Positions 3,916-61,133 of a stretch of 64,000 nt of DNA are shown here, one piece after another (position 1 is the first letter of the stretch; every line of letters begins with the position of its first letter). Position numbers and translations under genes: made by a program. Source of the stretch: Deltaproteobacteria bacterium. Lineage in GTDB: Bacteria; Desulfobacterota; Syntrophia; Syntrophales; Smithellaceae. The notes beneath the pieces are model-generated. The model saw only the letters and a program-made list of their open reading frames with translations. It was not told where the DNA came from and did no database searches. The stretch is taken from positions 55,028 to 119,027 of the forward strand of contig JAAYDW010000037.1 in the NCBI GenBank assembly GCA_012729055.1. The letters are read 5' to 3'.

Positions 3916-5442
3916 TCATCCCATCTTGCGCAATTCCTTCTTGAGAATTTTACCCACGGGATTTTTCGGCAATTCTCTCATAAAAGAAACCGTTTTAGGT
4001 GATTTGAAACGCGGGAGCGTTTTCAGACAATGGCCGATCAGCTCTTCTGCGGTGGCTGAACACCCGTCGCGCAAAACGACGCAGGCCTTGACTTCTTCGC
4101 CGTAAAGGGGATCCGGAACGCCGATCACCGCCGCTTCCAGAACCGCCGGATGAGAGAAAAGCGCGTCTTCGACCGACCCGGGTGAAATATTTTCTCCGCC
4201 GCGGATGATCAGGTCTTTTTTGCGGCCCGTGATGAAGACATTGCCTTCGTGATCCAGATGGCCCATATCGCCCGTGTGCAGCCAGCCGTTGCGCTTGGCT
4301 TCCGCCGTCTCATGGGGTTTGTTGAGGTATCCCAGCATGACGCCCGGTCCCTGAACGCAGATTTCTCCGTCCTGACCTGCCGGAACTTCATGGTCCTGTT
4401 CATCAAAAATTTTAACCGTCACTCCGTCAATCGCCGGGCCGACGGACCCGGCTTTCCGCGCCTGACCGACGCGCTGCCGGGTGATCGACGGCGCCGTTTC
4501 CGTCATTCCCAAACCGTCATAGACGACGCCTCCCAGCGTCTTTTCCACAGCCTTGACGGTTTCAGCGCTGAGCTGCGCGCCGCCGCACTTCCAGGTCGCA
4601 AGCGAGCTTAGGTCATGTACGGCGGGATCGTAGGCTTCGAGCAGTTTGATCAGCATCGTGGGCACACCCGCAAACTGCGTCACCCGGTTATGCGAAATGC
4701 TCTCCAGAACCATTTTCGGGTCAAACCACTTGTGGATAATCATCCGCGCTCCGGTCACGTTGCACTCGTTGACCATCAGCATGCCGAAAATGTGATTCAG
4801 GGGGAGGGGAACCAGGCTCACGTCCGTGCGCGTGCTGGGCCAGGAGGACAATCCGTTTTCCAGGGTGATGCTGATATTGTAATGAGAAAGCATGACGCCT
4901 TTGGGCGACCCGGTCGTCCCCGACGTGTACATCAGGACGGCCAGATCGTCCTGCGCCATTGCCGCCATTTCAAAATCGGCGGCTTGGCGGTCAATGAGCG
5001 ATGCGAAGGAAATCGTTCCCGGGCGCAGCGGCGCGTCTCCTTCGACAATGATGTGCCGGATGCCGGCCAGACCGTCGGATGCCGCCGCAATCTTCGCATG
5101 AAGTTCGGCGTTCGTCACCACGGCAACGGCGCCGGAATCCTCCAGGATGTATCGGATTTCCGACGCCGTCAGTCCGAAAATAACAGGAAGGAAAACGGCC
5201 CCCAGCCTGAAAATTCCGTTAAAGGCCACAGGCGCCGTCAGGCTGTTGGGCAAAACGACCGCAACGATATCGCCCCGCTTGATTCCCAGCTCGGCCAAAG
5301 ACGCCGCAAGGGCATTGGACCGGTCGCTAAGCCCCCGGTTCGTAAGCGTCTGCGCGCCGTCCTGGTCCTCGTACGTGAGAAGATCATACTCGCCGAAATT
5401 TTCAATATTCTGCGCTCCGTAGCGTGCATAATTCCAGTTCAT
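3916..5442 (-). CDS. AMP-forming acyl-CoA synthetase/ligase (medium-chain or aromatic-acid type)
   Basis: AMP-binding signature YTSGTTGSPKGV, plus TGDMGHLDHEGNVFITGRKKD and a C-terminal GKILK. The ORF opens at 5463; the second ATG at 5442 (MNWNYARYG) has the better GGGGAAG RBS. Confidence 0.9.
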   Translation of the reverse strand: MNWNYARYGAQNIENFGEYDLLTYEDQDGAQTLTNRGLSDRSNALAASLAELGIKRGDIVAVVLPNSLTAPVAFNGIFRLGAVFLPVIFGLTASEIRYILEDSGAVAVVTNAELHAKIAAASDGLAGIRHIIVEGDAPLRPGTISFASLIDRQAADFEMAAMAQDDLAVLMYTSGTTGSPKGVMLSHYNISITLENGLSSWPSTRTDVSLVPLPLNHIFGMLMVNECNVTGARMIIHKWFDPKMVLESISHNRVTQFAGVPTMLIKLLEAYDPAVHDLSSLATWKCGGAQLSAETVKAVEKTLGGVVYDGLGMTETAPSITRQRVGQARKAGSVGPAIDGVTVKIFDEQDHEVPAGQDGEICVQGPGVMLGYLNKPHETAEAKRNGWLHTGDMGHLDHEGNVFITGRKKDLIIRGGENISPGSVEDALFSHPAVLEAAVIGVPDPLYGEEVKACVVLRDGCSATAEELIGHCLKTLPRFKSPKTVSFMRELPKNPVGKILKKELRKMG

Positions 5443-5486
5443 CTTTTCTTCCCCAAATAACATGGTTATCTAAATTCCTGTTCTGC

Positions 5487-9523: not shown

Positions 9524-10816
9524 TCAACGGGCAAGCAAACCGACGGCGATGGCCTCCTTCCTCAACGCTTCCCGGAAATCCGGATGGGCGATGGAAATCA
9601 TGGCATTCACACGATCGGGAATGGATTTCAGATACAGGTCGGCAATTCCGTACTCCGTCACAACGTACATGACGTCGCAACGCTGAACCGTTACCACCGC
9701 CCCCGGAGGAAGTGCCACCGAGATCGTGGAGAGGATCTTGTTGTCTTTGGTCCTGATCGTGGACGGCATGCACAAAAAGCTTTTTCCGCCTTTCGACCGC
9801 AGCGCGCCGCGCACGAAATCCCCCTGCCCGCCGATCGAACTGTACTGCGTAAATCCAAGCGACTCGGAACAGACCTGGCCCGTAAGATCGGACATCAGGC
9901 AGCCGTTGATGGAAATCAGGTTGTCGTTTTGGCCGATGATGTTTTCATCGTTGGTGATCCGCAGGGGAGTGAGCTCGATTTGCCCGGCGGCCAAAAAATC
10001 GTAAAGCTCCGGACTGCCCATGGAGAAACCGGCGACGATCTTGCCGGTAATGACGCCCTTCTTGACCAGGTGCATCATGGAGTCCGTGAACATCTCGGTG
10101 TAGACCGACAAATTCTTCTTTTCTTCCAGGCGGTAGCCGATGGCGTTGGCCAGACCGCCGATGCCCAGTTGAATGCACGCGCCGTCGGGAATCTGATCGA
10201 TGAGAATGGCGGCGATTTGCTTATCCGTTTCCGTGGGCTCGCGCTGCGGGAAAACGGGAAAGGAATGATCCGCTTCACAAATATAATCCACCTTGCTCAC
10301 GTGGATTTTGCATTCGGGCCCCTTGATGCGGGGCTGGTATTTATTCACCTGAACGATGATTTTCTTCGCATACTCGGCAATCTCGCCATGCCAGTCCACG
10401 CCGCACGCGCCGTAGTACAGATAGCCTTCTTCGTCGGGAAGAGAAACGTCAACGGCCAGCGTGTCCACCCGGTAATAATCCCTGAGCGCGATGCAGACTT
10501 TGGAAAAGGGAACGGAGTTGTTATCGATATTGCCGATCTTGTGGTAGAGTCTTTCCTGGGGGCCGACAAATACGGAATGCCCCTTGATGTGACCGATGTA
10601 CTTTGCGTCCTGAAGGACTTTAAAATCGTACAAGAACAGGCTGCTGATGATGTGGACGTCGGTAAGCTCGGCGTACCGGTCGACGACCGCATCCATCAAT
10701 TGAATCGGCGTCGAGGTGCTGGACCCGAACCAGATCCGGTCGCCCGATTCAATCTTCGCCGCAGCGTCTTGCACTGAAACCAGTTTGCTTTGATAGATAT
10801 TCTTCCAGTCGGACAT
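9524..10816 (-). CDS. Acetyl-CoA hydrolase/transferase family protein (4-hydroxybutyrate CoA-transferase-like)
   Basis: 430 aa. Family motifs are present: IQLGIGGLANA, VYTEMFTD, SSIGGQGDFVRGA and a C-terminal IAHPDFRE. Confidence 0.9.
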   Translation of the reverse strand: MSDWKNIYQSKLVSVQDAAAKIESGDRIWFGSSTSTPIQLMDAVVDRYAELTDVHIISSLFLYDFKVLQDAKYIGHIKGHSVFVGPQERLYHKIGNIDNNSVPFSKVCIALRDYYRVDTLAVDVSLPDEEGYLYYGACGVDWHGEIAEYAKKIIVQVNKYQPRIKGPECKIHVSKVDYICEADHSFPVFPQREPTETDKQIAAILIDQIPDGACIQLGIGGLANAIGYRLEEKKNLSVYTEMFTDSMMHLVKKGVITGKIVAGFSMGSPELYDFLAAGQIELTPLRITNDENIIGQNDNLISINGCLMSDLTGQVCSESLGFTQYSSIGGQGDFVRGALRSKGGKSFLCMPSTIRTKDNKILSTISVALPPGAVVTVQRCDVMYVVTEYGIADLYLKSIPDRVNAMISIAHPDFREALRKEAIAVGLLAR

Positions 10817-13667: not shown

Positions 13668-13706
13668 CCATGACGCAAATGATTCACGGTGCATGATTTA
13701 ATTGCC
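13668..13706. promoter_or_regulatory. Candidate enhancer (UAS) element, copy 1
   Basis: The 39-nt sequence CCATGACGCAAATGATTCACGGTGCATGATTTAATTGCC matches 18844-18882 at 30 of 39 ungapped positions. It lies about 160-195 nt upstream of the sigma-54 promoter at 13495-13510 and contains two (G/C)CATGA repeats 23 bp apart. Confidence 0.55.
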
Positions 13707-15361: not shown

Positions 15362-16615
15362 CTACAGCATTTCCAGGGCGACGGCCATGGAGACGCCGCC
15401 GCCGCCGCAAAGCGTGGCGAGCCCCAGCGTGTTGCCGCGCTTCTGCATCGCGTGCAAAAGCGTCACGAGAAGCCGGCAGCCCGTGGCGCCGGTCGGATGG
15501 CCGAGCCCGCAGCCGGAGCCGTTGATATTGGTGATTTCCCGGTTGAGCCCGAGCTCTCTTTCGCAGGCGATGTACTGCGCAGCAAAAGCTTCATTCACTT
15601 CCATGAGCTCAAAATCCGCTATTTTCAAATTCGCGTTTTGCATCAGGTTCCGCACCGCCGGCGCGGGAGAAATTCCCATCACCGAAGGATGGCTGCCGCC
15701 GTAGCCCACGGCTTTGATCCGGGCCAGCGGCTTGAGCCCCAGCGCCCGGGCCTTTTCGGCCGACATGATCACCATGGCGGCGGCGCCGTCATTGAGGCCG
15801 GAGGAATTGCCGGCCGTCACTTTGCCGATCTTCGGAACGAAGGCGGGGGGCAGCGCCGCCAGACGGTCCATCGTCAGTCCCGCAATAAAATGTTCGTCCT
15901 TTTCGAAAACAAGCGGCGGCTTTCCTTTTTTCTGGGGAACGGACACGGGAATAATTTCCGCCCGGAAGGAACCGTCTTTCGTCGCGCGTTCGGCGTTGTT
16001 GTGGCTGCGCAGGGCCACCTCGTCCATCTCTTCCCGCGTAATGGAATACAGTTCGGCAAGAAACTCCGCCGTCTGCCCCATGATGTAAGGCTGGCCGCGG
16101 AACAGGTCGATGAGCGCCCCTTCCTTAAGCGGGCCTTTTTCCGGCCCGGGAAGCAGCCGCGATCCGCAGTAGAGCTGATGCCACACTTCGTCGGCGAAAA
16201 CCTGATCCTGAAGCCTGCTGCCCCACCGGGCCGTGAGGACGCGGTAAACGCCCCCGGACATCTGCTCCACGCCGCCCGCCAGAATGACGTCGGTAAATCC
16301 GGCTTTAATCATCGCCGCGCCGGACACAACCGCTTCCATCGCGGAAACACAGACGCGGTTCATGGTCACGGCCGGAACCGTCACGGGAATGTCCGCCAGC
16401 AGCGCTGCGACGCGGGCGGTATTTTGTTCATCGATATGTTCGTTGCAGCAGCCGAAGCGAACGTCATTGATGATCGCCGGGTCGATTCCGGCGCGGCGGA
16501 TGGCCTCCTTCATGACGACACTGGCCATCGTCGAAGCGTTACTGTCTTTGAGCGACCCGCCGAATTTACCGATGGCGGTCCGGCAGGCCGATACGATTAC
16601 AACATCTTTTTCCAT
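15362..16615 (-). CDS. Thiolase (acetyl-CoA C-acyltransferase family)
   Basis: 417 aa. Motifs: MNRVCVSAMEAV (nucleophile Cys), EVNEAFAAQ, GHPTGATGCR and LCGGGGVS. Confidence 0.9.
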   Translation of the reverse strand: MEKDVVIVSACRTAIGKFGGSLKDSNASTMASVVMKEAIRRAGIDPAIINDVRFGCCNEHIDEQNTARVAALLADIPVTVPAVTMNRVCVSAMEAVVSGAAMIKAGFTDVILAGGVEQMSGGVYRVLTARWGSRLQDQVFADEVWHQLYCGSRLLPGPEKGPLKEGALIDLFRGQPYIMGQTAEFLAELYSITREEMDEVALRSHNNAERATKDGSFRAEIIPVSVPQKKGKPPLVFEKDEHFIAGLTMDRLAALPPAFVPKIGKVTAGNSSGLNDGAAAMVIMSAEKARALGLKPLARIKAVGYGGSHPSVMGISPAPAVRNLMQNANLKIADFELMEVNEAFAAQYIACERELGLNREITNINGSGCGLGHPTGATGCRLLVTLLHAMQKRGNTLGLATLCGGGGVSMAVALEML

Positions 16616-24236: not shown

Positions 24237-24731
24237 ATGTACGTCGTTTTCTTTTTGGGGCTCGCGGTTGTGTTTTCGGCCGCCAGCCTGATCCGCAGGC
24301 GAAAAGAACTCTCGGCGCTGCGGATCGTCGAGACGGTTCTCCTTTATCTTTTCATCTTCAACGTGGGCTGTTCCGGACTGTTCGCCTTCTGGGGCCACGC
24401 CTTTTTTGCCGACCGAGCGGCCGCCTCCATCGGCTGGGCGCCGGGAAGTCCTTTTCAGTTCGAGGTAGCCGTGGCCAATCTGGCTTTCGGCGTTCTGGGA
24501 ATGCTCTGCATCTTTTTTAGGGATAATTTCTGGCTCGCGACCGGCGTCGGCTGCGCCGTTTTTCTTCTCGGCGCAGCGGCGGGTCACATTCGCGAAATGC
24601 TCACGGCGGGCAATTATGCCGTCAACAACGCGGGACCGGTTCTCTACCTTGGCGATATCACGATTCCGGTTTTGATTCTGGTGCTGCTGGCCGTCCGGCG
24701 CCGTCTCGCGCCGGCGCGGCGTCTTTCCTGA
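24237..24731 (+). CDS. Hypothetical integral membrane protein (4-5 TM)
   Basis: 164 aa and strongly hydrophobic, with GC3-rich codons. An AGGGGAGGG RBS-like run precedes the ATG. I do not recognise a family. Confidence 0.55.
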   Translation: MYVVFFLGLAVVFSAASLIRRRKELSALRIVETVLLYLFIFNVGCSGLFAFWGHAFFADRAAASIGWAPGSPFQFEVAVANLAFGVLGMLCIFFRDNFWLATGVGCAVFLLGAAAGHIREMLTAGNYAVNNAGPVLYLGDITIPVLILVLLAVRRRLAPARRLS

Positions 24732-26031
24732 CAAAATGGTAGTGAGGCCCGAAGCGCTCGAAAGCCGCCCGGTCCAGCGCTTCTCGGTGGTCGGGATGGG
24801 CGATGCCGATGAGCAGCCGCGCCCGCTCCTGGAGCGACCGGCCGTAAAGATTCACGGCGCCGTACTCCGTCACAATCCAGTGCGCGTGGGCGCGCGTCGT
24901 CACGACGCCCGCGCCGGGCGTGAGGACCGGCGTGATTTTGCTCACCCCCTTGTCCGTCGCCGACGGCATGGCCAGGATGGCCTTTCCGCCCGCCGAGCGC
25001 GACGCGCCGTAAAAGAAATCGATCTGCCCGCCCACGCCGGAGTAGCATTTCGTTCCCAGCGAGTCGGCCCCGATCTGGCCGGTGAGATCCACCTGCAGCG
25101 CGGAATTGATCGCCGTCACCTTCGGATTGCGCGAAAGGATGAAGGGATCGTTGGTGTAGCCCACATCCTTCATCAGCACCGAGCTGTTGCGGTGCACGTA
25201 ATCGTATAATTTTTTCGATCCCAGAAGAAACGTCGCCACCATCTTCCCCGGGTCGATCGCCTTGTTTGCCCCGTTGATCACGCCTTTTTCCACGAGCGGA
25301 ATCACGCCGTCGGCAAACATCTCCGTGTGAATCCCCAGATTTTTATGCCCCGAAAGCTGGGACAAAACCGCGTTGGGAATCGCGCCGATGCCCATCTGCA
25401 GCGTGGCGCCGTCTTCGATGAGCGCCGCGCAGTGCCGGCCGACGGCCGCCTCGACGGCATCCGGCTCTGTGTAATGAACCGTATGAAGCGGGGCGTCGTC
25501 TTCCACGAAAAAATGAATGCGCGAGGCGGGGAGAACGCCGTCGCCGAATGTAAACGGCACAGAGGGATTCAGCACAGCGATCACAACCCTGGCCTTTTCG
25601 ACGGCGGCTACGGACGCGTCCACCGACGTTCCCAGCGACACGTTGCCTTCGTCGTCGGGCGGGCTCACCTGGATCAGGGCCACGTCGCACGGCAGGTGCC
25701 CTTCCCGGTAAAGACGCTGGGTTTCGCCGAGAAATACGGGGATATAGTCGGCGTATCCCTGCTGCGTCCAGGAGCGGACATTGGGGCCGACGAAAAAGGA
25801 GTCGAGCTGAAAGACGCCCTCAAACGACGGATCGGCATAAGGCGCGGGACCTTCCGTGTGGAGATGATGGATATGAACGTCTCGTAATTCTCCGGTCCGA
25901 CCCCGCCGGCACAGGGCGGCCACCAGACAGTGGGGCGCGTTCGACGTGGCGCTCAAATGAACGTGATCCCCCGATTGTATCGCTTTTACCGCTTCGTCCG
26001 GCACAACGGTTGCAATGGAATTGGCTCTCAT
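24658..26031 (-). CDS. Acetyl-CoA hydrolase/transferase family protein (4-hydroxybutyrate CoA-transferase-like)
   Basis: Motifs: LQMGIGAIPNAV, GIHTEMFADG, SGVGGQIDFFYGA, IAHPDHRE. The start is probably M16 (MRANSIATV, 26031); the ORF is open to 26076. The C-terminal tail overlaps the convergent membrane-protein gene. Confidence 0.9.
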   Translation of the reverse strand: MRANSIATVVPDEAVKAIQSGDHVHLSATSNAPHCLVAALCRRGRTGELRDVHIHHLHTEGPAPYADPSFEGVFQLDSFFVGPNVRSWTQQGYADYIPVFLGETQRLYREGHLPCDVALIQVSPPDDEGNVSLGTSVDASVAAVEKARVVIAVLNPSVPFTFGDGVLPASRIHFFVEDDAPLHTVHYTEPDAVEAAVGRHCAALIEDGATLQMGIGAIPNAVLSQLSGHKNLGIHTEMFADGVIPLVEKGVINGANKAIDPGKMVATFLLGSKKLYDYVHRNSSVLMKDVGYTNDPFILSRNPKVTAINSALQVDLTGQIGADSLGTKCYSGVGGQIDFFYGASRSAGGKAILAMPSATDKGVSKITPVLTPGAGVVTTRAHAHWIVTEYGAVNLYGRSLQERARLLIGIAHPDHREALDRAAFERFGPHYHFVRKDAAPARDGAGRPAAPESKPES

Positions 26032-26101
26032 GGGCACCTGTTTTTGTAGGGTACTGCGATAAAGCAAAGACTGCACGCTGCCAGGCTGCGGACCGGTAGC
26101 C

Positions 26102-27027: not shown

Positions 27028-28317
27028 CTAAACCGCTTCGATGGCAATGGCCATGCCCTGGCCGCCGCCGATGCACAGGGAAGCCAGCCCCAGGCCTACG
27101 TTGCGTCGCTTCATTTCATTGGCGAGCGCCAGCACGATGCGCGCGCCGGAGCAGCCGACCGGATGGCCGATGGAAATGGCCGAACCGTTGACGTTGGTGA
27201 TGTCCCAGGGAATGCCCAGCTCGCGCAGACAGGAGATGGCCTGGGAGGCAAACGCTTCGTTGAGTTCAAAAAGACCGTAATCCTTGACGGACGTGCCGGT
27301 AATGCGCAGCAGTTTGCGCACGGCCGGAACCGGCCCCAGTCCCATGTAGGCCGGATCGACGCCGCCCGAGGCGTAGCCCTTGATTCTCGCCAGGGGTTTT
27401 AACCCCATCTGTTTGGCTTTGTCCTCGCTCATGATCAGCAGCGCCGCCGCCGCGTCGTTGATGCCGGAAGCGTTGCCGGCCGTTACCGTTCCGTCTTTTT
27501 TGAAGGCCGTCCCCAGCTTGGCCAGTTTCTCCAGACTGGTTTCCATCGGGCGCTCATCCGTGTCGAAGACGATGGGGTTGCCCTTCTTCTGGGGAATCGT
27601 GACCGGAACGATTTCGTCTTTCAAGAGACCGCTTTTGATCGCATTGCGGGCGCGGGTATGGCTCTCGAGGCTGAGCTTGTCCTGCTCTTCACGGGAGATA
27701 TTGTAGCGCGCGGCGATGTTTTCGGCGGTGATGCCCATGTGGTAGCCGTAAAAGATTTCATACAGGGCGTCAAACACCATCAGGTCGACGGTTTTGCCGA
27801 AAGGCATATCCATGCGGTGCCCCCAGCGGGCTTTGGGCAGGCCGATGGGCACGTCGCTCATGTTTTCCATGCCGCCTGCGACGACCACTTCGTTGTCGCC
27901 GGCCTTGATCGTGGCGGCGGCCAGCGCAATGGCTTTCATGCCGGAAGCGCACACCTTGTTGACCGTAATGGCGGTCGTTTCCTTGGGAAGGCCGGCGCGG
28001 ATCATCGCCTGGCGTCCGACGTTCTGCCCCTGGCCCGCGCCGATGACGTTGCCCATGATCACTTCGTCCACGGCGATTTCCCGGAGATTCTCATCCCACT
28101 TGTAATACTGCTGTTCAATCGGGCAAAGGCCCTCGGTTTTAGCCGTATCCGGCGCGTCTTCCCCGGCGTGGGCGGGCAGGCCCGGTTTGAATCCGGCTTT
28201 CACCAGAGCTTCATGGATAACCAGCGCTCCCAGGTCTTTGGCGGGAACGTCCTTTAAAGAGCCGCCGAAGGCTCCTACCGCGGTGCGCACACCGCTGACA
28301 ATGACTGCATTTGGCAT
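27028..28317 (-). CDS. Thiolase (acetyl-CoA acetyltransferase-like)
   Basis: 429 aa. Motifs: VNKVCASGMKAI, ELNEAFASQ, GHPVGCSGAR and LCIGGGQGMA. Confidence 0.95.
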   Translation of the reverse strand: MPNAVIVSGVRTAVGAFGGSLKDVPAKDLGALVIHEALVKAGFKPGLPAHAGEDAPDTAKTEGLCPIEQQYYKWDENLREIAVDEVIMGNVIGAGQGQNVGRQAMIRAGLPKETTAITVNKVCASGMKAIALAAATIKAGDNEVVVAGGMENMSDVPIGLPKARWGHRMDMPFGKTVDLMVFDALYEIFYGYHMGITAENIAARYNISREEQDKLSLESHTRARNAIKSGLLKDEIVPVTIPQKKGNPIVFDTDERPMETSLEKLAKLGTAFKKDGTVTAGNASGINDAAAALLIMSEDKAKQMGLKPLARIKGYASGGVDPAYMGLGPVPAVRKLLRITGTSVKDYGLFELNEAFASQAISCLRELGIPWDITNVNGSAISIGHPVGCSGARIVLALANEMKRRNVGLGLASLCIGGGQGMAIAIEAV

Positions 28318-28512: not shown

Positions 28513-30411
28513 TTATTCTCCGGCCGCGCCGGCGGCCGGAGGCTCGGCCAGGGAAAAGCGCAGAACCAGTGCATCGGCCTCGCAGGACCGGCCGGTTTCC
28601 AGCCCGGCTTTTTCGAACACTTTCAGCATGGCTTCGTTGCGGGGCAGAACATAGGCGACAAACCGGGCGACGCCCCGGTCGCGCGCGATTTTCACCAGGT
28701 AGCTGAACAGGAAAGTGGCGATGCCTTTTCCCTGGAATTCCTCGTCCACGATGAAGGCGATTTCGTAGGCGTCCTCTTTCTTGTCGTACGCGTAGCGCGC
28801 CTCCGCGATGATTCTTTCGTTGCGGCCTTTTTCCACGATGGCGACGACGGACATCACCTCATCGTAGTCGATGCTGACGTATTTCTGCATTTCCTTGTGC
28901 GGCATCAGGGGCTTCGGCGCAAAATAGCGGAAGTACTTCGACTCGTCGGAAAAGTTGTAAAACAGCCGCCGCATCATGTCCTCATCGGAAGGTTTGATGG
29001 GGCGGATCTTCACTTCCAGGCCATCGCGCAGCGTCTTGCGCGTTTCGAGCAGAGCCGGATAGTTGGCCGCGTGCCGGGCGACGTAAATCTGATCCGGATA
29101 CACGTAGTTGAACGCTTTGGCCTGCGCGAGCAGGCTCTCGCGGTGATCCGGATGGGCGATATCGATCATGGCGAGCGCCCGTTCACGGATCGATTTCCCG
29201 AAAAGATTGGCCACGCCGTACTCCGTGACAATATACTTGACCACGCCCAGCGTGCTGTGCGGATTGTCGGCGGCGCTGTCGTGCCGAATGACGATGTTGC
29301 TGCGGCCCTCCCGGTCGACGGAATTGAGCGCGACAATAGCCTTGCCTCTTTTTGAAATGGTCGCAGCCACGGCAAAGTTGAGCTTGCTTTCATAACCGGT
29401 GAGCAGATTGTCTCCGGAATGAAAGATAACGGAATCGCCGAAAATGTCGATCTTTTTAACATTCATAATACTGATCAAACTTTGAATCCGGCGCACGACA
29501 AAAGGATTGCTCAGGCGCGCAAGCGGATAAAATTCAAAAATGGGATTGCGGCTGACATAGTCATAAAGGGCACGGCTTCCATAGCAGTAGCTGGCGGTCA
29601 CCAGCCCGCCGCTGATCCGGCTGCGGTCCAGCGAAATGGCGCCGGAGGCAATCAGATCGATGACCCAGTCGGAAACCACATGGGTAAGAATCCCCAGATT
29701 TTTCTTATTTTGCAGATGATGGGCCACGGCGGTGAACACTCTGCCCACATGGAGCGCCACGGTTGCGCCGTCTTCGATCAGGTTGGAAATATTCCAGCCG
29801 ATTCTGTCCATGATGGAATCGTAGGACTTGCTTTCCCTTTCAATCAAAGGCAGGTCGCTTTCCACCACATAATCAAAACTGCTGATATGCAGAAACGTTT
29901 CGCCCAGGGTAACGGGCATGTTGGGATTGATTTCCGCTATGACCAGCGACGCTTGTTTTGCGACAATATTGGCCACGTCCACCGCCACGCCCAGAGAAAC
30001 AAATCCGTTGTCGCCGGGCGGGGACGTCGCAATCACCGCCACATCGACGGCCACCGCTCCGCTTAAAAAAAGATACGGCAGCTCCATGAGATTGGCGGGA
30101 ATAAAGTCGACTTTGCCTTCCGCAATTTCCTTGCTGATGCTTTCTCCGATATTGAACGTCTTCAATCGGTATTGCCGGTTGTCGCTGGAAGACTGGAGAT
30201 ATTTGCCCAGGGTAATCAGTTGGATGATTTCCAGATCGCGGATGTTGGGCGCGTCGGATCGGGCGATGGCCGTGAGCATTTTTCCGGGCGCCGCCACGCC
30301 GCTGGAAACGAAAATTTTCTGCCCCGGTTTGATTTTCTCCAGGATTTTTTCTTCGCTGGTCACCTTGGCTCTGTAATCGGAGCCGCGTCTCCCGGTTTTT
30401 TGTTCCATCAT
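28513..30411 (-). CDS. Fusion protein: degenerate acetyl-CoA hydrolase/transferase-like domain (aa 1-466) plus Pat-type GNAT acyltransferase domain (aa 467-632)
   Basis: The N-terminal two thirds align with the two CoA-transferase paralogs in this window and end in IAHPDHRE. However, TEMF is replaced by THVV, QxGIG by LHVG, and GGQxDF by YESKLNF. The C-terminus (IRPIKPSDEDMMRRLFYNFSDESKYFRYF ... EFQGKGIAT ... AMLKVFEKAG) is a GNAT of the kind found in protein acetyltransferase Pat. Confidence 0.85.
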   Translation of the reverse strand: MMEQKTGRRGSDYRAKVTSEEKILEKIKPGQKIFVSSGVAAPGKMLTAIARSDAPNIRDLEIIQLITLGKYLQSSSDNRQYRLKTFNIGESISKEIAEGKVDFIPANLMELPYLFLSGAVAVDVAVIATSPPGDNGFVSLGVAVDVANIVAKQASLVIAEINPNMPVTLGETFLHISSFDYVVESDLPLIERESKSYDSIMDRIGWNISNLIEDGATVALHVGRVFTAVAHHLQNKKNLGILTHVVSDWVIDLIASGAISLDRSRISGGLVTASYCYGSRALYDYVSRNPIFEFYPLARLSNPFVVRRIQSLISIMNVKKIDIFGDSVIFHSGDNLLTGYESKLNFAVAATISKRGKAIVALNSVDREGRSNIVIRHDSAADNPHSTLGVVKYIVTEYGVANLFGKSIRERALAMIDIAHPDHRESLLAQAKAFNYVYPDQIYVARHAANYPALLETRKTLRDGLEVKIRPIKPSDEDMMRRLFYNFSDESKYFRYFAPKPLMPHKEMQKYVSIDYDEVMSVVAIVEKGRNERIIAEARYAYDKKEDAYEIAFIVDEEFQGKGIATFLFSYLVKIARDRGVARFVAYVLPRNEAMLKVFEKAGLETGRSCEADALVLRFSLAEPPAAGAAGE

Positions 30412-30681: not shown

Positions 30682-33600
30682 ATGGAGAGATCGGTCATGA
30701 TTGAAAAGAGCAACCGGCAGTACATCGAAGAAATCAAGTTGATCCGGCGGCAAATGGCTTCTTTGGATCAGCAGAAAACCGAGCTTCAGGACACGATAGA
30801 CCGGATGAAAGAAAACGAAAAATTCTACCGGGATCTGGCCGAAAACGATCCGGACTGGACCTTCTGGCTGGACGCCGACAATCGTCTGGTGTACGTATCC
30901 CCCTCCGCCAAGCGCATCACCGGCTATGAACCGGAAGACTTCCGGAAAGACGCCAAACTTCTGTTTAAAATGATTCATCCCGACGACCGTTCAGCCTTCG
31001 ACGATCACCTCCACTTTGCGCGCAAGTCCAAAGCCAGCACGGAAGAGGAGTTCCGGATTATCCGGAAAGACAAAAAAACGCGCTGGATCAGTCACCTGCC
31101 CCAGCCGGTTTACGATGAAGAAGGCCGGTACGCCGGGCTTCTGTCCAGCAACCGCGACATCACCGGCAGCAAAACCAAAAACGACGGTTCCCTGGACAGC
31201 GAAATCCGCTACCGCCTGCTTTCTGAAAACATCCGGGATGTCGTCTGGTCGATGGACCCGACCCTGCGCCCGACGTATGTGAGTCCGTCGGTCTTGCTTC
31301 TGCTCGGCTATACGGTCGAAGAAGCCCTGGACCAGAACTTCCGCGTCGTTCTGACACCGGTCGCGCTGCAGAAGTTCAACGAGGCCTGGTCGCCGGAAAT
31401 GGAAAAGCAAGGCGTCGCGGGGACGACCGCCAAATCCTCCCTCACACTGGAACTGGAATGCCGGCGCAAGGACGGCTCCACCGTCTGGACCGAATCGCAG
31501 TTCACGGCCCTGCGCAACGACAATAAAAAAATCGTCGAAATCATCTGCGTCAGCCGCGACATCACCGCTCTTGTCGAGGCCCGGGAAAAACTGGCCCTGG
31601 AGGAAACACGGCAGGCGCACAGCGAACAACGGATGAAGGCGCTGTGCGACGCGGCGGAAGAAAGCCTCTATTTCGCCGACGCGGACGGCCGCCTGGTGCT
31701 GGTTAACGCCGCAGCCGCCCGGTGCCTCGGCACGGACCCGGAAACCCTGCTCGCCAGCGGGAAACTGGGGGATTTTATTCCGCGGGACGCCGAAGCAAGG
31801 TGTAAAGAGCACATTGCCCGGGCGCTGCAAGGCGCGGAGACGGTTGCATTTCAGGAGGATCTCCTGGGCCGATCCATGCGCTGCCTGGCGAATCCGGTCG
31901 CGGGAGAAGACGGAACCCTCATCGGCGTTGCCGTTTGCGGACAGGATGTCACGGACCTCGCATCCGCCCGGACGGAAATCGAGGACCTCCGCCGCGCGCG
32001 GGACGCCGCTGAAAAGAAGCGGCGCGACGGGGAAAAAGAACTCTCGGAACGCGAACGGCAGCTGGACGAAGTCGCAGAAGCGTTGAAAGAGCGGCAAAGC
32101 CTGCTTGCAGGCTGCGAGCGCCGGCTTGCAGAAAATTCGGACCGGCAAGAGGCCCTGGAAAAGGAACTTGGCGACAGCCGCAGCCGCCTGGAGGAAAAGG
32201 AAAGCGCGCTTGCGCAACTGAAAGGCGAGTTGCGGGGGCTTCTCGATGCGGCAACGGAAGCTTTTTTCCTGATGGATCTTCAGGGCCGTCTGCTTTATGC
32301 CAACGAAGCGACCGCCCGGCTCGTTCACACGGAGCTTCCGGCGCAGACAGCGGGCCGCAGTCTCTATGATTTTCTGCCCGCTCCCGCAGCCGACCGCTAC
32401 CGGAAATACGCGGCGGACGTTCAAAAAACAGGACGGCCGATACACTTTGATCTGGAAATTTTCGGCCGGCCCATGACGCATTCCGTCTGCCCCATTATGA
32501 ATGAAAAAGGCAAGGTCACGCGGCTGGCCGTTTTCGCGGCGGATCTCTCCGACCGCAGGACCGGCGAAGCGCAGGCCGAGGAAAACCGGCGCCGGGCCAG
32601 GGAAGCCGAACACATGCTGCAGCTCATTGTCGACGCCATCCCCCTGCGTATTTTCTGGAAGGACCAAAACTCCGTTTATCGGGGCGCCAACGCCCTTTTC
32701 GCCCGTGACGCGGGCCGGGAAAATCCCGAAGCGCTGATCGGAAAAACGGACGATGACATGATCTGGAGCGACAAGGCAAAGCAATACCGCCGCGAGGACA
32801 GCGAGGTCCTAACCTCGGGAAAGCCCAGAGTCCGCAGCGAGGAGCGCTGTGCCGGGCCCAGCGGCGGGCAGCGCTGTTTTCAGACCACCAAGACGCCCCT
32901 GACGGACGACGGCCGGATCATCGGCATCCTGGGCCTGTACGATGACGTCACCGACCGGAAAACGGCCGAAGAAGCGCTTGCGGAAAGCGAAAAGCGCTAT
33001 CGCAGCGTCTTTGAAAACAACCGCATGCCCATGCTGCTCATCGATCCGGAAGGCGGGATCATCCTGGACGCGAATCCCGCGGCCGCCGACTACTACGGCT
33101 GGAACAGAGCCGCGCTGACCCGCATGACCATCGCCGACATCAACACGCTGCCCGGAAGCGAAATCACCAAAATGATGAAACTGGCCATGACGCGTAAAAG
33201 CAGTCATGTCTTTTTCAAGCACAACCTCGCGGACGGCTCCGTTCGCGACGTCGAAGTCTTCAGCAGTCTGCTGCAGTTTCACGGCAAAGCCGCGATCTGC
33301 GCCATGATTTACGATGTAACGGAACGCGTCCGGATGGAAGGCGCCCTGCGGCAAGCCGAAAAGCTCGACTCGCTGGGCATTCTGGCCGGCGGCATCGCGC
33401 ACGACTTCAACAACCTGATGACCATTGTACAGGGTCACATCGACGTGGCGCTTCTGGGACTGCCCGAGGACGACTCCGCGCGGCAAAGCCTTCGCGCGGC
33501 GCAGGACGCGGTCGATAAAACACGAGAGATCACCGGCCGCCTCATCACTTTCTCCCGCGGCGGCGCGCCGGTCGCGAAACCCCGCCGCGTCCAGAATCTG

Positions 33601-34476
33601 CTTTCCGCCGCGGCCCAGCGTCTGCTTGCCGCGTCTCCCGTCAAATGGTCTCTGGACCTCGCCGACGATTTATGGCCCGCGGAAGTGGATTCAAATCAAA
33701 TCCAGCAGTGCTTCTGCCATTTGATCGACAACGCCCGGGAAGCCATGCCGGAGGGCGGACGGCTGACCATCCGCGTCGAAAATGCGGACATCGGAGAAGC
33801 GGACTTGCTGCCGCTGGCTTCGGGACCGTATCTGAAAATCATTTTCGACGACAGCGGCGCCGGTATTGCCCCCGAACATCTCGCCCGCATCTTCGATCCT
33901 TATTTCACGACGAAGCCCCTGGGAAAGGAAAAGGGGCTGGGACTGGGGCTGGCCGTCTGCCATTCCGTGCTGAAGAAGCATGACGGTTACATTGCCGTCC
34001 ATTCCGACCAGGGGCAGGGAGCAACCTTTACGCTGTACCTTCCGGCGCAGCCCGGAGCGGTCGTGGAAGAGGAACCGGCGCAGGAAAAGAAGCCGACGCC
34101 CGGACGCATTCTCATCATGGACGACAATGCCGATATCCGGAAGATCCTCCAGATCTACATGGAAAAGCAGGGATTTGCCGTCACCGGCGTCACGGAAGGC
34201 CAGGAAGCCGTCCGTCAGTACCGGGAAGCGCAGGAGGCGGGAGAGCCCTACCACGCCGTCTTCATGGAAATCTCCGTGAAGCAGGGCCTTGGCGGAGAAT
34301 CCACAATCACGCGGCTCAAAAGCATCGATCCGGACGTCAAAGCCGTGGCCATTGTTTCCGAAGACGGCGACAGCCGCACGCAGAATTTTCTCGATCTCGG
34401 CTTTAGCGAAGTCCTGGGCAAACCGTTTCGCCTGGAGGATATGAGAAAAATTCTCGGCAGCCTGATCAAGATCTGA
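30682..34476 (+). CDS. Multi-PAS hybrid sensor histidine kinase with coiled-coil segment and C-terminal receiver-like domain
   Basis: 1264 aa. It has repeated PAS/PAC units (for example RWISHLPQPVYDEEGRY and DITERVRMEGAL), a charged coiled-coil (aa ~430-500), an H-box GIAHDFNNLMT, HATPase motifs DSGAGI and GLGLGLAV, and a receiver-like domain at 34102-34473. Confidence 0.9.
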   Translation: MERSVMIEKSNRQYIEEIKLIRRQMASLDQQKTELQDTIDRMKENEKFYRDLAENDPDWTFWLDADNRLVYVSPSAKRITGYEPEDFRKDAKLLFKMIHPDDRSAFDDHLHFARKSKASTEEEFRIIRKDKKTRWISHLPQPVYDEEGRYAGLLSSNRDITGSKTKNDGSLDSEIRYRLLSENIRDVVWSMDPTLRPTYVSPSVLLLLGYTVEEALDQNFRVVLTPVALQKFNEAWSPEMEKQGVAGTTAKSSLTLELECRRKDGSTVWTESQFTALRNDNKKIVEIICVSRDITALVEAREKLALEETRQAHSEQRMKALCDAAEESLYFADADGRLVLVNAAAARCLGTDPETLLASGKLGDFIPRDAEARCKEHIARALQGAETVAFQEDLLGRSMRCLANPVAGEDGTLIGVAVCGQDVTDLASARTEIEDLRRARDAAEKKRRDGEKELSERERQLDEVAEALKERQSLLAGCERRLAENSDRQEALEKELGDSRSRLEEKESALAQLKGELRGLLDAATEAFFLMDLQGRLLYANEATARLVHTELPAQTAGRSLYDFLPAPAADRYRKYAADVQKTGRPIHFDLEIFGRPMTHSVCPIMNEKGKVTRLAVFAADLSDRRTGEAQAEENRRRAREAEHMLQLIVDAIPLRIFWKDQNSVYRGANALFARDAGRENPEALIGKTDDDMIWSDKAKQYRREDSEVLTSGKPRVRSEERCAGPSGGQRCFQTTKTPLTDDGRIIGILGLYDDVTDRKTAEEALAESEKRYRSVFENNRMPMLLIDPEGGIILDANPAAADYYGWNRAALTRMTIADINTLPGSEITKMMKLAMTRKSSHVFFKHNLADGSVRDVEVFSSLLQFHGKAAICAMIYDVTERVRMEGALRQAEKLDSLGILAGGIAHDFNNLMTIVQGHIDVALLGLPEDDSARQSLRAAQDAVDKTREITGRLITFSRGGAPVAKPRRVQNLLSAAAQRLLAASPVKWSLDLADDLWPAEVDSNQIQQCFCHLIDNAREAMPEGGRLTIRVENADIGEADLLPLASGPYLKIIFDDSGAGIAPEHLARIFDPYFTTKPLGKEKGLGLGLAVCHSVLKKHDGYIAVHSDQGQGATFTLYLPAQPGAVVEEEPAQEKKPTPGRILIMDDNADIRKILQIYMEKQGFAVTGVTEGQEAVRQYREAQEAGEPYHAVFMEISVKQGLGGESTITRLKSIDPDVKAVAIVSEDGDSRTQNFLDLGFSEVLGKPFRLEDMRKILGSLIKI

Positions 34477-57230: not shown

Positions 57231-59042
57231 TTAAGCGTTGTAAAGCGCTTGAATCTGTTTGCCGTATTTCCTGATAACGTTAAGCCGTTTGAGCTTCATG
57301 GTCTGTGTAATCAGGCCGTTATCCACCGTGAAGTCTTCTGCGATAAAAAGGTACTTCTGCGGAACTTCGTAGCCTCCGAAAACTTTGCGCAGGTGGGTCG
57401 TAATATCATTGGACAGATAATTCGTCACGGCCTTGTCTTTCAGGGATTCTTCCAGCGTGTCTTTCAAAAGCGGTTTGAGGTTCGGATCCGCCTTAAGCGC
57501 GTTGAAGTCGGGAACCACAACAGCCACATTGTAATCCTTGCCGTCGCCGTAGAGCATGATCTGGAGGACGTAGCGCAGCAGCTTGGCTTCGTTTTCAATG
57601 CCTTCCGGATGGACGTACTTGCCGTTGGCCAGTTTGTATTCATCCTTGAAGCGTCCGGTGATATGCAGGAAGCCGTCTTCGTCGAGCCAGCCGCGGTCGC
57701 CGGTGCGGATGCCGGGAAAACCGTTCCATGTATCCGGCATCAGAATTTCCGCCGTCTGCTGCGGCTTATTGTGATACCCCCGCATGACGCAGGGACCGTA
57801 CGCAATGATTTCACCGTCGATGCTGTCTTCGCCCGTACGTGATTTGTCAATCACCACGTGCATGCCTGCGGCGGGCTTTCCGACCGTGCCGTATTTGTTG
57901 CCGTACTTGGGGGAGTTGACCGAAATCGTCGGAGCGGTTTCCGTCATTCCGTAGCAGTCATAGGTGGGCTGGCCGATGTCTTTGAAGAAGAGAGCGATTT
58001 CGGGCTTCAGAAGCGCGCTGCCGGTCACAAAGAATTTCAGATTGCCGCCGAACACGTTGCGGACCTGGGAGAAAACCAGCGCATCATAATCTTTAAACTC
58101 TTTTGTTTTTTCAGGCAGGTCGCGGTTTTTGACCGCTTCCGCCACCGCCGCGTCAAAGAACTGCTTTTTCACCGGGTCGGCGCTGACCCCCTGCAAAATG
58201 GTGTCGTAAATCTTGTTCACGATGCGGGGAACGACGGAAAGGCCCGTGGGTTTGACCTCCTGGAAGTTCTGCACCAGCTTTTCCAGCGATTCGGCAAAGG
58301 CAACACCGCCGCCGCAATAAATGTAGTTATGCAAATCGGCGTTCTGGCCGAAGATATGCGCCCAGGGCAAAATGGCGACGACATGCATGGTTTCATCCAG
58401 CGTGAAAGTATCAATACTGGATTTCGCGCTCATGGTCATGTTGCCGTGTGTGAGCTCGACGCCTTTGGGATCGCCGGTTGTTCCGGAGGTGTAAATGATG
58501 CTGGAAAGATCCGGCCAGGTCAGCTTGATGGAAGGCGCCGGGGTTTTTTTGCCCATTTCTTCGAGGGCTTTCAGGGAATTTTCTCCCTCTCCGAAAACGA
58601 GAAAAATCTCCTGCAGCCCGGGAATACTCTTTTTGAAATCCTTGATTTTTTCATAAGCACCGGCATGCGCGACAAAAAGAAATTTTACCGCGGCATCTTT
58701 AACGATGTACTCGATGACTTTCGGCATTTCCTGAAGATACATGGGAACGAAAACGCCGCCCAGACCGTGCACCGCCTGTTCGCAGATGAACCATTCCTGG
58801 CAATTGTGGAGAATAACGCCCACGGAATCTCCTTTGGCCAAGCCAATCTTCTTGAGCGCGCCGCGAAGGTTGTTGACCCGGTCGGCCACCTGCCGGTAGG
58901 TCGTCCATTCATACTTTCCGGACGCCTGGCTTTTTGTGCCGAACAGTCTGTTGTTGCCGTATTTGGCCACGCTCTGTTCAAACAAATCTACCAGGTTGTT
59001 GGGATTGCCGTACACTTCGTCGATGTTTGCTTCTTTAGCCAT
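57231..59042 (-). CDS. Long-chain-fatty-acid--CoA ligase (AMP-forming)
   Basis: 603 aa. It has YTSGTTGDPKGVELTH, TGDRGWLDEDGFLHITGRFKD, and C-terminal TQTMKLKR typical of FadD/ACSL-like enzymes. Confidence 0.9.
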   Translation of the reverse strand: MAKEANIDEVYGNPNNLVDLFEQSVAKYGNNRLFGTKSQASGKYEWTTYRQVADRVNNLRGALKKIGLAKGDSVGVILHNCQEWFICEQAVHGLGGVFVPMYLQEMPKVIEYIVKDAAVKFLFVAHAGAYEKIKDFKKSIPGLQEIFLVFGEGENSLKALEEMGKKTPAPSIKLTWPDLSSIIYTSGTTGDPKGVELTHGNMTMSAKSSIDTFTLDETMHVVAILPWAHIFGQNADLHNYIYCGGGVAFAESLEKLVQNFQEVKPTGLSVVPRIVNKIYDTILQGVSADPVKKQFFDAAVAEAVKNRDLPEKTKEFKDYDALVFSQVRNVFGGNLKFFVTGSALLKPEIALFFKDIGQPTYDCYGMTETAPTISVNSPKYGNKYGTVGKPAAGMHVVIDKSRTGEDSIDGEIIAYGPCVMRGYHNKPQQTAEILMPDTWNGFPGIRTGDRGWLDEDGFLHITGRFKDEYKLANGKYVHPEGIENEAKLLRYVLQIMLYGDGKDYNVAVVVPDFNALKADPNLKPLLKDTLEESLKDKAVTNYLSNDITTHLRKVFGGYEVPQKYLFIAEDFTVDNGLITQTMKLKRLNVIRKYGKQIQALYNA

Positions 59043-59566: not shown

Positions 59567-59760
59567 CATTTGCGGGCGCCAACAGGAATAAATGCTTGCC
59601 TCGGAGAGCAAATACTGGTAAAAGCACGAAAATTTTGAAAAGAGACTTTTTTATAAGTTATCTGTCAGAAGCGCTTGGCCGCCGCAGCACCGGACGGACC
59701 GACACGCGCGCCTGACGCTTGTTTAAAAGTCAAAAAATAAATTTCAGAGAGGTCAGAACT

Positions 59761-61006: not shown

Positions 61007-61133
61007 GAGGGAAGTGTGCTTGGAAAGTAAAACCTCACCCGTTTATTGACATCAAGCCATTCGTTAACAAATTAAAAAATAACACATCACAACATAGCGG
61101 ACCGTTTAAGCCGCAATGTCAGGAGGAAACAAC

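Follow-up and report, generated by a model that had tools for sequence, protein, structure and literature searches.

A Pat-type GNAT fused to a degenerate CoA-transferase domain in Smithellaceae: a candidate protein acyltransferase and the large fusion family to which it belongs

Our analysis of a 64,000-nucleotide stretch of a Smithellaceae (Syntrophales) genome (assembly GCA_012729055.1, contig JAAYDW010000037.1, positions 55,028 to 119,027; hereafter the window) concerns a gene for a 632-residue protein in which a GNAT domain follows a domain with the fold of a coenzyme A (CoA) transferase. We favour, with somewhat better than even confidence, the reading that this fusion is a Pat-family protein N-epsilon-lysine acyltransferase whose N-terminal 434 residues are a pseudoenzyme with a regulatory or scaffold role. 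The pseudoenzyme derives most likely from a 4-hydroxybutyrate/butyryl-CoA:acetate CoA-transferase. Of greater importance than the gene itself is the fusion family behind it; the window gene belongs to its most degenerate branch, a clade found in Smithellaceae, Leptospirales and Syntrophomonadaceae.

The open reading frame (ORF) is real, runs on the minus strand and divides clearly into domains. Pfam places AcetylCoA_hydro N at residues 12-186 (2e-21), AcetylCoA_hyd_C at 278-431 (2.4e-38) and GNAT at 468-604 (~1e-11); in NCBIfam the top full-length model is butyryl-CoA:acetate CoA-transferase, at a score far under its cut-off, and the top GNAT model is mycobacterial Pat. Against the PDB, phmmer matches the N-domain to 9VAG (8e-83), 3EH7 (3e-73) and 3GK7 (3e-66). 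An AlphaFold2 model built on 92 family members (predicted local distance difference test, pLDDT, 90.4; predicted template modelling score, pTM, 0.87) gives in Foldseek template modelling (TM) scores of 0.83-0.89 to 3GK7, 2OAS and RipA. To the GNAT of S. lividans Pat in 4NXY and 4U5Y the scores are 0.88-0.91, and 4U5Y, among the closest structural matches of the fusion GNAT, is a complex of Pat with the C-terminal domain of acetyl-CoA synthetase (Acs). The order of a 4-hydroxybutyrate/butyryl-CoA-transferase fold, a conserved linker and a Pat-type GNAT is thereby confirmed. The identical database protein is annotated only as 'GNAT family N-acetyltransferase'. All 120 of the closest database proteins share the fusion and its substitutions, so it is not a product of chance.

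An earlier note on this DNA, made from its letters alone, had aligned residues 1-466 along their length with two CoA-transferase paralogues of the same window, and had read three conserved blocks as substituted, with loss of the conserved Glu. Both points hold. The alignment runs end to end, with 28% and 33% identity to the paralogues in the order of Table 1 (the second is given there from its mechanical ORF start, a GTG at 26076, where the note had 26031), and the substitutions are seen against solved 4-hydroxybutyrate CoA-transferases as well as against the paralogues. Pfam domain calls, alignment to characterised enzymes and structure prediction, which were among the checks that the note had proposed, agree with both the fusion and the catalytic loss.

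What do these substitutions remove? The Glu of class I CoA-transferases acts as the nucleophile and forms an acyl-glutamyl anhydride and a glutamyl-CoA thioester; the external oxyanion hole is the backbone nitrogen of the second Gly of a Gly-Gly loop (Gly388 of AarC), strictly conserved in the superfamily, and the internal one is a carboxamide side chain, for which two subfamilies use different conserved carboxamides (PMC4876117). In RipA the CoA cleft is gated by a mobile loop, the G-V-G beside the Glu (PMC3180442). The fusion keeps the two-domain AcetylCoA_hydro fold and shares with active 4-hydroxybutyrate CoA-transferases the C-terminal VTEYG...IAHPD region. It lacks the nucleophilic Glu, the GGQxDF loop, the Gln of QxGIG (Ala or Val in its clade), which in intact enzymes would be a candidate for the internal oxyanion-hole carboxamide, and the conserved basic residues. 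With nucleophile, oxyanion-hole elements and gate loop all replaced, class I CoA transfer by the canonical mechanism is excluded in the window fusion and, because three defining catalytic features are missing, the protein does not count as a functional member of the CoA-transferase family.

The replacements are shared well beyond the nearest relatives. We thinned the window's clade to 31 sequences of below 75% identity (mean 57%) and compared it with the branch of the family in which the transferase motifs are intact. H221 occurs in 120 of 120 close homologues and in 26 of the 31, at a position that is Gly in 45/45 of the intact branch; W249 occurs in all 31, against Gly in 40/45. In the former Gly-Gly loop, E341 is kept in 29 of the 31 (the other two have Asp), K343 in every one and N345 in 29. 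At the position of the nucleophile, Glu in 45/45 of the intact branch, His is found in 119/120 close homologues, while the thinned clade has 19 His, 11 Asn and one Tyr. This alternation rules out His244 as a conserved functional replacement.

The GNAT domain presents a different picture from that of the transferase in that all its predicted catalytic residues are present, and its sequence is that of a Pat-type enzyme. The earlier note had recognised a Pat/PatZ-type signature, and this proved correct: the signature IRPIKPSDEDMM..F.NFSDESKYFRYF lies at residues 469-496, and the best matches are Pat enzymes, not small-molecule GNATs. In the PDB these are S. lividans PatA (4NXY, 1e-28), E. coli PatZ (2e-17) and M. 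tuberculosis Pat (9e-15), and in NCBIfam the Pat model reaches 7e-26, whereas the best small-molecule GNAT model (ArsN1) reaches 1e-6. The predicted general base, E550, corresponds to E235 of M. tuberculosis Pat (MtPat) and is Glu in 29 of the 31 clade sequences (Asp in the other two) and in 78 of 92 fusions across the family. The acyl-CoA pyrophosphate-binding P-loop follows the motif R/Q-x-x-G-x-G/A (PMC8556138), with G563 in 31/31 of the clade. Between the two domains, the pre-GNAT segment (YP...E....L.DG....RPI) aligns with the equivalent segment of S. lividans PatA and E. coli PatZ; residues 431-470 have a block-mean pLDDT of 85-95, and pairwise identity of the linker is 57.2% in the thinned clade as compared with 28% in the intact branch.

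How far has the N-domain of the window's clade departed from an enzyme? Of the 212 N-domain positions that the intact branch conserves, 76 are replaced here. Six conserved basic residues which presumably contact CoA, and which are Arg or Lys in 9VAG, 3EH7 and 3GK7, have changed (R93, K264, K270, R348, R373 and R387 to S, S, L, V, I and T, respectively), so that the clade keeps 0 of 6 basic and 0 of 7 catalytic-motif residues. Across the rest of the family, with this clade excluded, the more motif residues a member retains, the more of the basic residues it tends to keep (Spearman 0.62, p = 4e-9). Our comparison of 120 close homologues had suggested that all of the new residues were selected and that a new pocket had been built. 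Thinning to 31 sequences ruled this out: the 76 remodelled positions have an entropy of 1.36 against 1.55 for the rest of the domain (p = 0.12), and most former active-site positions evolve as ordinary ones. Because the basic residues are lost and most of these positions are relaxed, canonical CoA binding by the N-domain is doubtful, indeed unlikely as far as sequence can tell, and the description of the protein as 'acyl-CoA-sensing' in the earlier note is for this clade hard to sustain.

What does appear fixed at the former catalytic centre is a new constellation of residues, H221, H/N244, D248-W249, E341, K343 and N345; besides W249 and K343, the residues D248, G339 and I373 are each found in 31/31 of the thinned clade and N372 in 30/31. 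Moreover, pairwise identity within the thinned clade is nearly the same in the two domains (N-domain 56.8%, GNAT 58.3%), which points to purifying selection on N-domain and linker as strong as that on the GNAT. In the window's clade, then, catalysis seems to have been abandoned, and with it probably the CoA nucleotide site, and the domain would still be needed and tightly coupled to the GNAT.

To see how this clade is distributed, we scanned species-representative genomes with an alignment that spans the domain junction; the scan reached mainly the degenerate clade and found at least 582 fusion loci. The best 80 of these lie in Smithellaceae/Syntrophaceae, many Leptospirales/Spirochaetota, Syntrophomonadaceae and two Desulfobacterales. 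All have degenerate motifs, with His, Asn or Tyr at the Glu position, except for the two Desulfobacterales, which have Pro. A Leptospira biflexa metagenome-assembled genome is among the carriers, and several genomes hold two copies, including several of Leptospirales. A second paralogue type occurs in Smithellaceae/Syntrophaceae, ~52% identical to the first ('RICS[HY]..SDW', 'PGFEGKLNF'; loci L059, L061, L065, L068, L074 and L076, as against L014 and others). A FACS-type acyl-CoA ligase lies 0.1-3.7 kb downstream of it at L068, L074 and L076, and genome UBA4059 has both types. At 55-70% identity, the degenerate clade is common to Syntrophia, Leptospirales/Spirochaetota and Syntrophomonadaceae (loci L018-L079), and since these are unrelated phyla of fatty-acid oxidisers, its distribution suggests spread by horizontal transfer tied to that lifestyle.

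The window fusion is not an isolated oddity; rather, it is one extreme of a large family, many of whose members have an intact transferase. A first, exhaustive search of 50%-identity representatives gave among the best 150 hits 74 full-length fusion clusters of 590-670 residues, down to 29% identity. A second search, with a profile made from 16 intact-motif members, was saturated at 8000 proteins: 8000 of 8000 candidates had E <= 1e-30. The best 120 of the 8000 are nearly all ~606-650 residues long, with the same three-domain Pfam pattern and generic names, and taxa named among them are Calditrichota, Simkaniaceae, Planctomycetota, Xanthomonadales/Lysobacterales, Thermoplasmata and Methanomassiliicoccales. 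The CoA-transferase-GNAT fusion is a very large family, present in many bacterial phyla and in some archaea (Thermoplasmatota). The earlier note knew of no functional characterisation of the architecture, and in the open-access literature searched we likewise found no paper describing it.

In the intact branch the Q, G-x-G, E, GGQ, D and F of the motifs are invariant or nearly so, from which the transferase there is presumably active. Across 92 aligned fusions, on the other hand, 14 different residues are found at the site of the Glu (Glu itself in 40 fusions, His in 19, Asp in 12, Pro in 5, and others), and Fitch parsimony on a rough neighbour-joining tree counts ~15 changes between Glu and non-Glu. 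The variety of the 13 replacements alone shows that loss of the catalytic Glu was recurrent. The transferase was probably intact in the ancestor and became inactivated many times. Among the replacements, Asp (12/92 fusions: P0132, P0144, P0146, P0150, P0152, P0158, P0168 and others) deserves separate mention. A Glu-to-Asp change reportedly turned glutaconate CoA-transferase into a thioesterase, and the Asp-carrying members might hydrolyse acyl-CoA instead of being inert.

Some relatives depart from the common architecture. In P0147 and P0148 (~960 residues) an N-terminal extension of ~340 residues with 4Fe-4S dicluster motifs precedes a Glu-lost domain (Val, Gln) and the GNAT, which hints at redox input in some members. 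P0251 (703 residues) joins an intact CoA-transferase to an enoyl-CoA hydratase and has no GNAT; the transferase module is therefore a frequent fusion partner. Eight stand-alone CoA-transferase homologues of ~420-430 residues without a GNAT (P0236, P0243, P0244, P0253, P0256, P0258, P0263 and P0267) have Gly at the catalytic Glu ('GIHSG...') and an intact GVGGQxDF loop; they may form a separate non-canonical or inactive subfamily.

Several observations elsewhere in the family support a role of the fusion in protein acylation. Two members with degenerate transferase motifs, P0150 (1013 residues) and P0184 (955 residues), carry a C-terminal Hist_deacetyl domain (~1e-80). That of P0184 is of the class IIb/HDAH/'acetoin utilization protein'-like type (HDAC6 1e-99, bacterial 5JI5 1e-66, HDAH 6e-52), with a match of only 1e-28 to acetylpolyamine amidohydrolase, and that of P0150 is class I/HDLP-like (HDAC2 3e-62). 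Since the two belong to different classes, HDAC domains were fused independently to the same module, so that one polypeptide carries both a writer and an eraser. One archaeon of the Methanomassiliicoccales has a gene for a true acetyl-CoA synthetase (ACAS_N + AMP-binding + AMP-binding_C) and, 50 bp downstream of it and in the same direction, a fusion gene with intact motifs. Finally, among 81 loci (those of the genome scan and two earlier ones) an AMP-forming acyl-CoA synthetase is present at 14 and is the immediate neighbour at 11. In nine of these 11 cases the two genes point the same way and are 6-277 bp apart; such pairs are seen in Spirochaetota, in deltaproteobacterial members and in Desulfobacterales. 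Of the ligases at the 81 loci, 8 end in a PX4GK motif and 6 are of the FACS type ('...TPTMKLKR'). Both types occur directly beside a fusion gene, the FACS type at 6 loci, and the window has one ligase of each (Table 1).

How might such a protein act? In the reading that we favour, the GNAT would use acyl-CoA to acylate the A10 lysine of AMP-forming acyl-CoA synthetases, and possibly other proteins as well, and this modification of the ligases would tie fatty-acid activation to the acyl-CoA pool. The N-domain may serve in dimerisation, as a substrate-docking surface or in conformational gating of the GNAT, by analogy with the dimers of 4-hydroxybutyrate CoA-transferases and with PatZ, which requires its regulatory domain in order to be active; there the domain also gives the Acs pocket its shape and, when a ligand binds, opens the GNAT (PMC12184503). 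The rebuilt site may bind a small ligand. Loss of the basic residues argues against CoA as that ligand and, to speculate, a carboxylate would fit the Lys, His, Asn and Trp that are conserved.

A number of points weigh against this reading. The mycobacterial Pat model NF058543, an equivalog, is matched at 87-91 bits, far under its cut-off of 460 bits. The members with HDAC fusions or an adjacent Acs gene lie outside the window's clade, in branches of 30-35% identity, and the 81 loci are phylogenetically non-independent. Ligase density in these loci, at 14 per 895 kb, is no higher than in the window, which rules out a general enrichment of ligases near the fusion; immediate adjacency alone stands out. 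The nearest ligases of the window lie 23 and 27 kb from the fusion gene, and the adjoining ligases of other genomes are not their orthologues (29-42% identity). A Pfam scan of window ORFs of at least 220 residues turned up neither a sirtuin nor an HDAC gene. The spatial clustering of H221, H244, W249, E341 and K343 is taken from homology to solved enzymes. Lastly, the neighbourhood is not conserved: a relative of 84% identity has two sensor genes inserted before the cluster of thiolase, alpha-beta hydrolase and CoA-transferase genes that follows the fusion in the window, and in a relative of 71% identity the gene context is unrelated. Conserved co-transcription with this cluster is thereby ruled out. 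The earlier note had also appealed to genomic context, and while acyl-CoA genes do surround the fusion in the window, the argument drawn from them is weak for the same reason.

Alternatively, acyl-CoA or CoA might still occupy the old cleft of the inactive CoA-transferase domain, which would thereby activate the GNAT allosterically, an explanation which we consider unlikely for the window protein. PatZ is itself activated by acetyl-CoA through its regulatory domain (PMC12184503), the domain is well conserved in fold and in its C-terminal half, and the carriers of the clade live on acyl-CoA metabolism. Moreover, the Glu-lost members P0130, P0144, P0146, P0168, P0153 and P0264 keep all of the canonical basic residues; a CoA-binding, non-catalytic state would by this measure clearly exist in the family, and it is plausible in those other lineages. 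In the window's clade, by contrast, no basic or catalytic-motif residue of the two sets survives, most former active-site positions evolve like ordinary ones, and the change of the Gly-rich loop to E-S-K puts a carboxylate at the would-be thioester position.

A second alternative concerns the acceptor. GNATs show functional promiscuity and their acceptor is not determined by sequence similarity, HDAC-family domains include small-molecule amidohydrolases, and most family members have no informative neighbours. The GNAT might thus acylate a small amine or a protein N-terminus, the N-domain binding that small substrate or a related acid. We hold this to be quite improbable, in view of a match to Pat 20 orders of magnitude better than that to the best small-molecule model, the shared Pat-specific pre-GNAT segment, the structural match to the Pat-Acs complex 4U5Y, fused HDAC domains that are nearer to protein deacetylases than to acetylpolyamine amidohydrolase, and the adjacency to Acs and acyl-CoA ligases. 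Least probable of all is a transferase still alive, with E341 as a relocated catalytic carboxylate in a bifunctional enzyme that makes its own acyl-CoA donor or hydrolyses acyl-CoA: although E341 or Asp is found throughout the thinned clade and always together with loss of E244, although a second degenerate clade (Glu to Pro) also has a conserved Glu in this loop and although the intact branch makes an ancestral bifunctionality of transferase and GNAT probable, the Gln, the external oxyanion-hole Gly, the gate loop and all conserved basic residues were lost together, which leaves a relocated nucleophile nothing with which to handle CoA, and the peripheral positions are relaxed.

A bolder proposal, which we regard as rather improbable, takes in the whole family: the fusions would be a sixth class of prokaryotic protein acyltransferases, very widespread though so far overlooked, which couples the pools of free acids and acyl-CoA to acylation. 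An intact N-domain would make acyl-CoA from a free acid (butyrate, propionate, 4-hydroxybutyrate or similar) and acetyl-CoA and would pass this donor to the GNAT in situ; if true, lysine acylation would report which acids are present. The window's clade would in this scheme be a ligand-gated pseudoenzyme. Its rebuilt site (H221, H/N244, W249, E341, K343, N345) would keep the carboxylate half-site only, would sense a fatty or short-chain acid and would turn off acyl-CoA synthetases in fatty-acid-oxidising anaerobes and leptospires.

To return to the reading of the window fusion as a Pat-family acyltransferase with a pseudoenzyme domain, it is instructive to compare it with known systems. Five types of bacterial lysine acetyltransferase are distinguished, and the recognised regulatory domains are ACD-like, cAMP, ACT and NADP (reviews 2021, 2024; 2025 PatZ structure paper); the accessory domain of the fusion is not among the regulatory domains in these reviews or in that structure paper. 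With type I/II Pat (S. enterica Pat, E. coli PatZ/YfiQ, S. lividans PatA) it shares the GNAT subfamily, the catalytic Glu, the P-loop, the pre-GNAT segment and AMP-forming acyl-CoA synthetases as likely targets. Moreover, in both a large domain derived from a CoA enzyme, without its catalytic residue, is joined to the GNAT, so that the parallel with Pat drawn in the earlier note is borne out in arrangement. The domain itself differs, being an NDP-forming acyl-CoA synthetase (ACD) of 700-900 residues in type I/II Pat and a class I CoA-transferase of ~430 residues, without ATP-grasp or CoA-ligase subdomains, in the fusion; and the PatZ domain binds acetyl-CoA, whereas that of the window's clade has probably lost its CoA site. 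For residues 1-434 the AcetylCoA_hydro fold is the sole match in Pfam and fold searches, with no ACD-homologous regulatory domain, and it is for want of an ACD domain that the fusion is not a type I or II enzyme.

The type III enzymes (M. tuberculosis and M. smegmatis Pat with cAMP, the Micromonospora ACT-GNAT, Myxococcus MxKat with an NADP domain) likewise place an accessory domain of a few hundred residues ahead of a Pat-type GNAT at the C-terminus, as does the fusion with its 434 residues, linker and GNAT, and the mycobacterial Pat model is the top NCBIfam match of the fusion's GNAT, though far under the cut-off (91 against 460 bits). The accessory domain of the fusion is, however, unrelated to their cyclic-nucleotide (cNMP)-binding, ACT or Rossmann domains. 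Compared with AbfT (3GK7), Y. pestis RipA (3QLI), Shewanella 2OAS and the window paralogues, it has the same two-lobed fold (TM 0.83-0.89) at ~30-35% identity, but has replaced the Glu, the Gln, the G-I-G gate, GGQxDF and the six basic residues, and has a GNAT appended. In B. subtilis a GNAT writer (AcuA) and a Zn-dependent deacetylase eraser (AcuC) act on AcsA. P0150 and P0184 similarly join a GNAT and an AcuC/HDAC-type domain, though in one polypeptide rather than as separate proteins of one operon, and the Acs adjacency of the archaeal member fits the logic of AcuA and AcsA. The window fusion differs in having no HDAC domain and no deacylase found nearby.

Thus the fusion family adds to the five-type scheme a kind of regulatory domain which is absent from it, yet very common. 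It also offers a natural series that begins with an active enzyme, passes through a domain that probably binds CoA without catalysis and ends in a completely rebuilt pseudoenzyme, with the same GNAT partner throughout, and this is unusually good material for the question of how enzymes become regulators. Acyl-lysine modification is extensive in syntrophic fatty-acid degraders. One paper on the Syntrophus acylome names deacylases and no acyltransferase (PMC8942843), and the window gene is a concrete candidate for the writer. Although the concept parallels PatZ, the lead is worth pursuing for the size of the family, its gradation between enzyme and pseudoenzyme and its fusions of writer with eraser.

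Table 1. Features of the fusion gene and of related genes in the window (positions are those of the 64,000-nucleotide stretch)
Feature	Position	Strand	Basis
CoA-transferase-like/Pat-type GNAT fusion, 632 residues	28513..30411	-	ORF from ATG to stop; Pfam, NCBIfam, AlphaFold2, Foldseek
Pseudo-CoA-transferase domain, residues 12-434, 4-hydroxybutyrate/butyryl-CoA:acetate CoA-transferase fold	29110..30378	-	phmmer against PDB
A219-L-H221-V-G223 in place of Q-x-G-I-G	29743..29757	-	alignments to solved enzymes and window paralogues
H244 where intact enzymes have the nucleophilic Glu (E238 of AbfT/3GK7, E249 of RipA)	29680..29682	-	residue-level alignment to 3GK7, 9VAG, 3EH7
D248-W249, W249 in place of a conserved Gly	29665..29670	-	clade alignment
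E341-S-K343-L-N345 in place of G-G-Q-x-D, external oxyanion-hole loop	29377..29391	-	alignments
Inter-domain linker, residues 435-466, Pat-type pre-GNAT segment YPxxxE....L.DG	29014..29109	-	alignment to PatA, PatZ
Pat-type GNAT catalytic domain, residues 467-620	28552..29013	-	PDB, NCBIfam, Foldseek matches
E550, predicted GNAT general base (= MtPat E235)	28762..28764	-	aligns with Glu of MtPat 'AEIAF' and PatZ 'AEFAV'
Q560-G-K-G-I-A565, acyl-CoA pyrophosphate-binding P-loop	28717..28734	-	sequence read directly
Intact CoA-transferase paralogue, comparator	9524..10816	-	Pfam; motifs QLGIG, YTEMF, GGQGDF intact
Intact CoA-transferase paralogue, comparator	24658..26076	-	Pfam; motifs QMGIG, HTEMF, GGQIDF intact
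Candidate substrate (inferred), AMP-forming acyl-CoA synthetase, PKNPVGK (PX4GK), motif lysine K505 at 3949-3951	3916..5463	-	Pfam AMP-binding + AMP-binding_C
Second candidate substrate, FACS-type ligase ending ...TQTMKLKR, without PX4GK	57231..59042	-	Pfam AMP-binding

In the window a gap of 195 bp separates the fusion from the downstream thiolase/alpha-beta hydrolase/CoA-transferase cluster, of which the second comparator paralogue is the last gene, and a gap of 270 bp separates it on the upstream side from a divergent hybrid histidine kinase of 1264 residues with multiple PAS domains and a receiver domain (30682-34476, plus strand). PAS-rich kinases flank the fusion in 16 loci, mostly of Smithellaceae, and a thiolase follows it in 10 loci only, all of Smithellaceae; for most family members examined the neighbours are unrelated and uninformative. 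The fusion gene behaves as a stand-alone unit. Pat genes generally stand alone.

With three family III CoA-transferases (13698-14996, 47640-48962 and 48959-50314, all on the minus strand), two of which adjoin each other and a branched-chain-type ABC transporter, and five thiolases (12133-13353, 15362-16615, 27028-28317, 59719-60942, others), the window is unusually dense in genes of acyl-CoA metabolism; it also holds the two intact 4-hydroxybutyrate/butyryl-CoA-transferase paralogues of Table 1. An HpaB-fold protein (61116-62597, plus strand) scores far under the cut-offs of the HpaB equivalogs (154 against 480 bits), and we presume that it may be a 4-hydroxybutyryl-CoA dehydratase. A DDE transposase (DUF772 + DDE_Tnp_1; 42703-43764, plus strand) occupies the sole low-GC stretch of the window, where GC content is 0.47 at 42-44 kb as against ~0.56 elsewhere.

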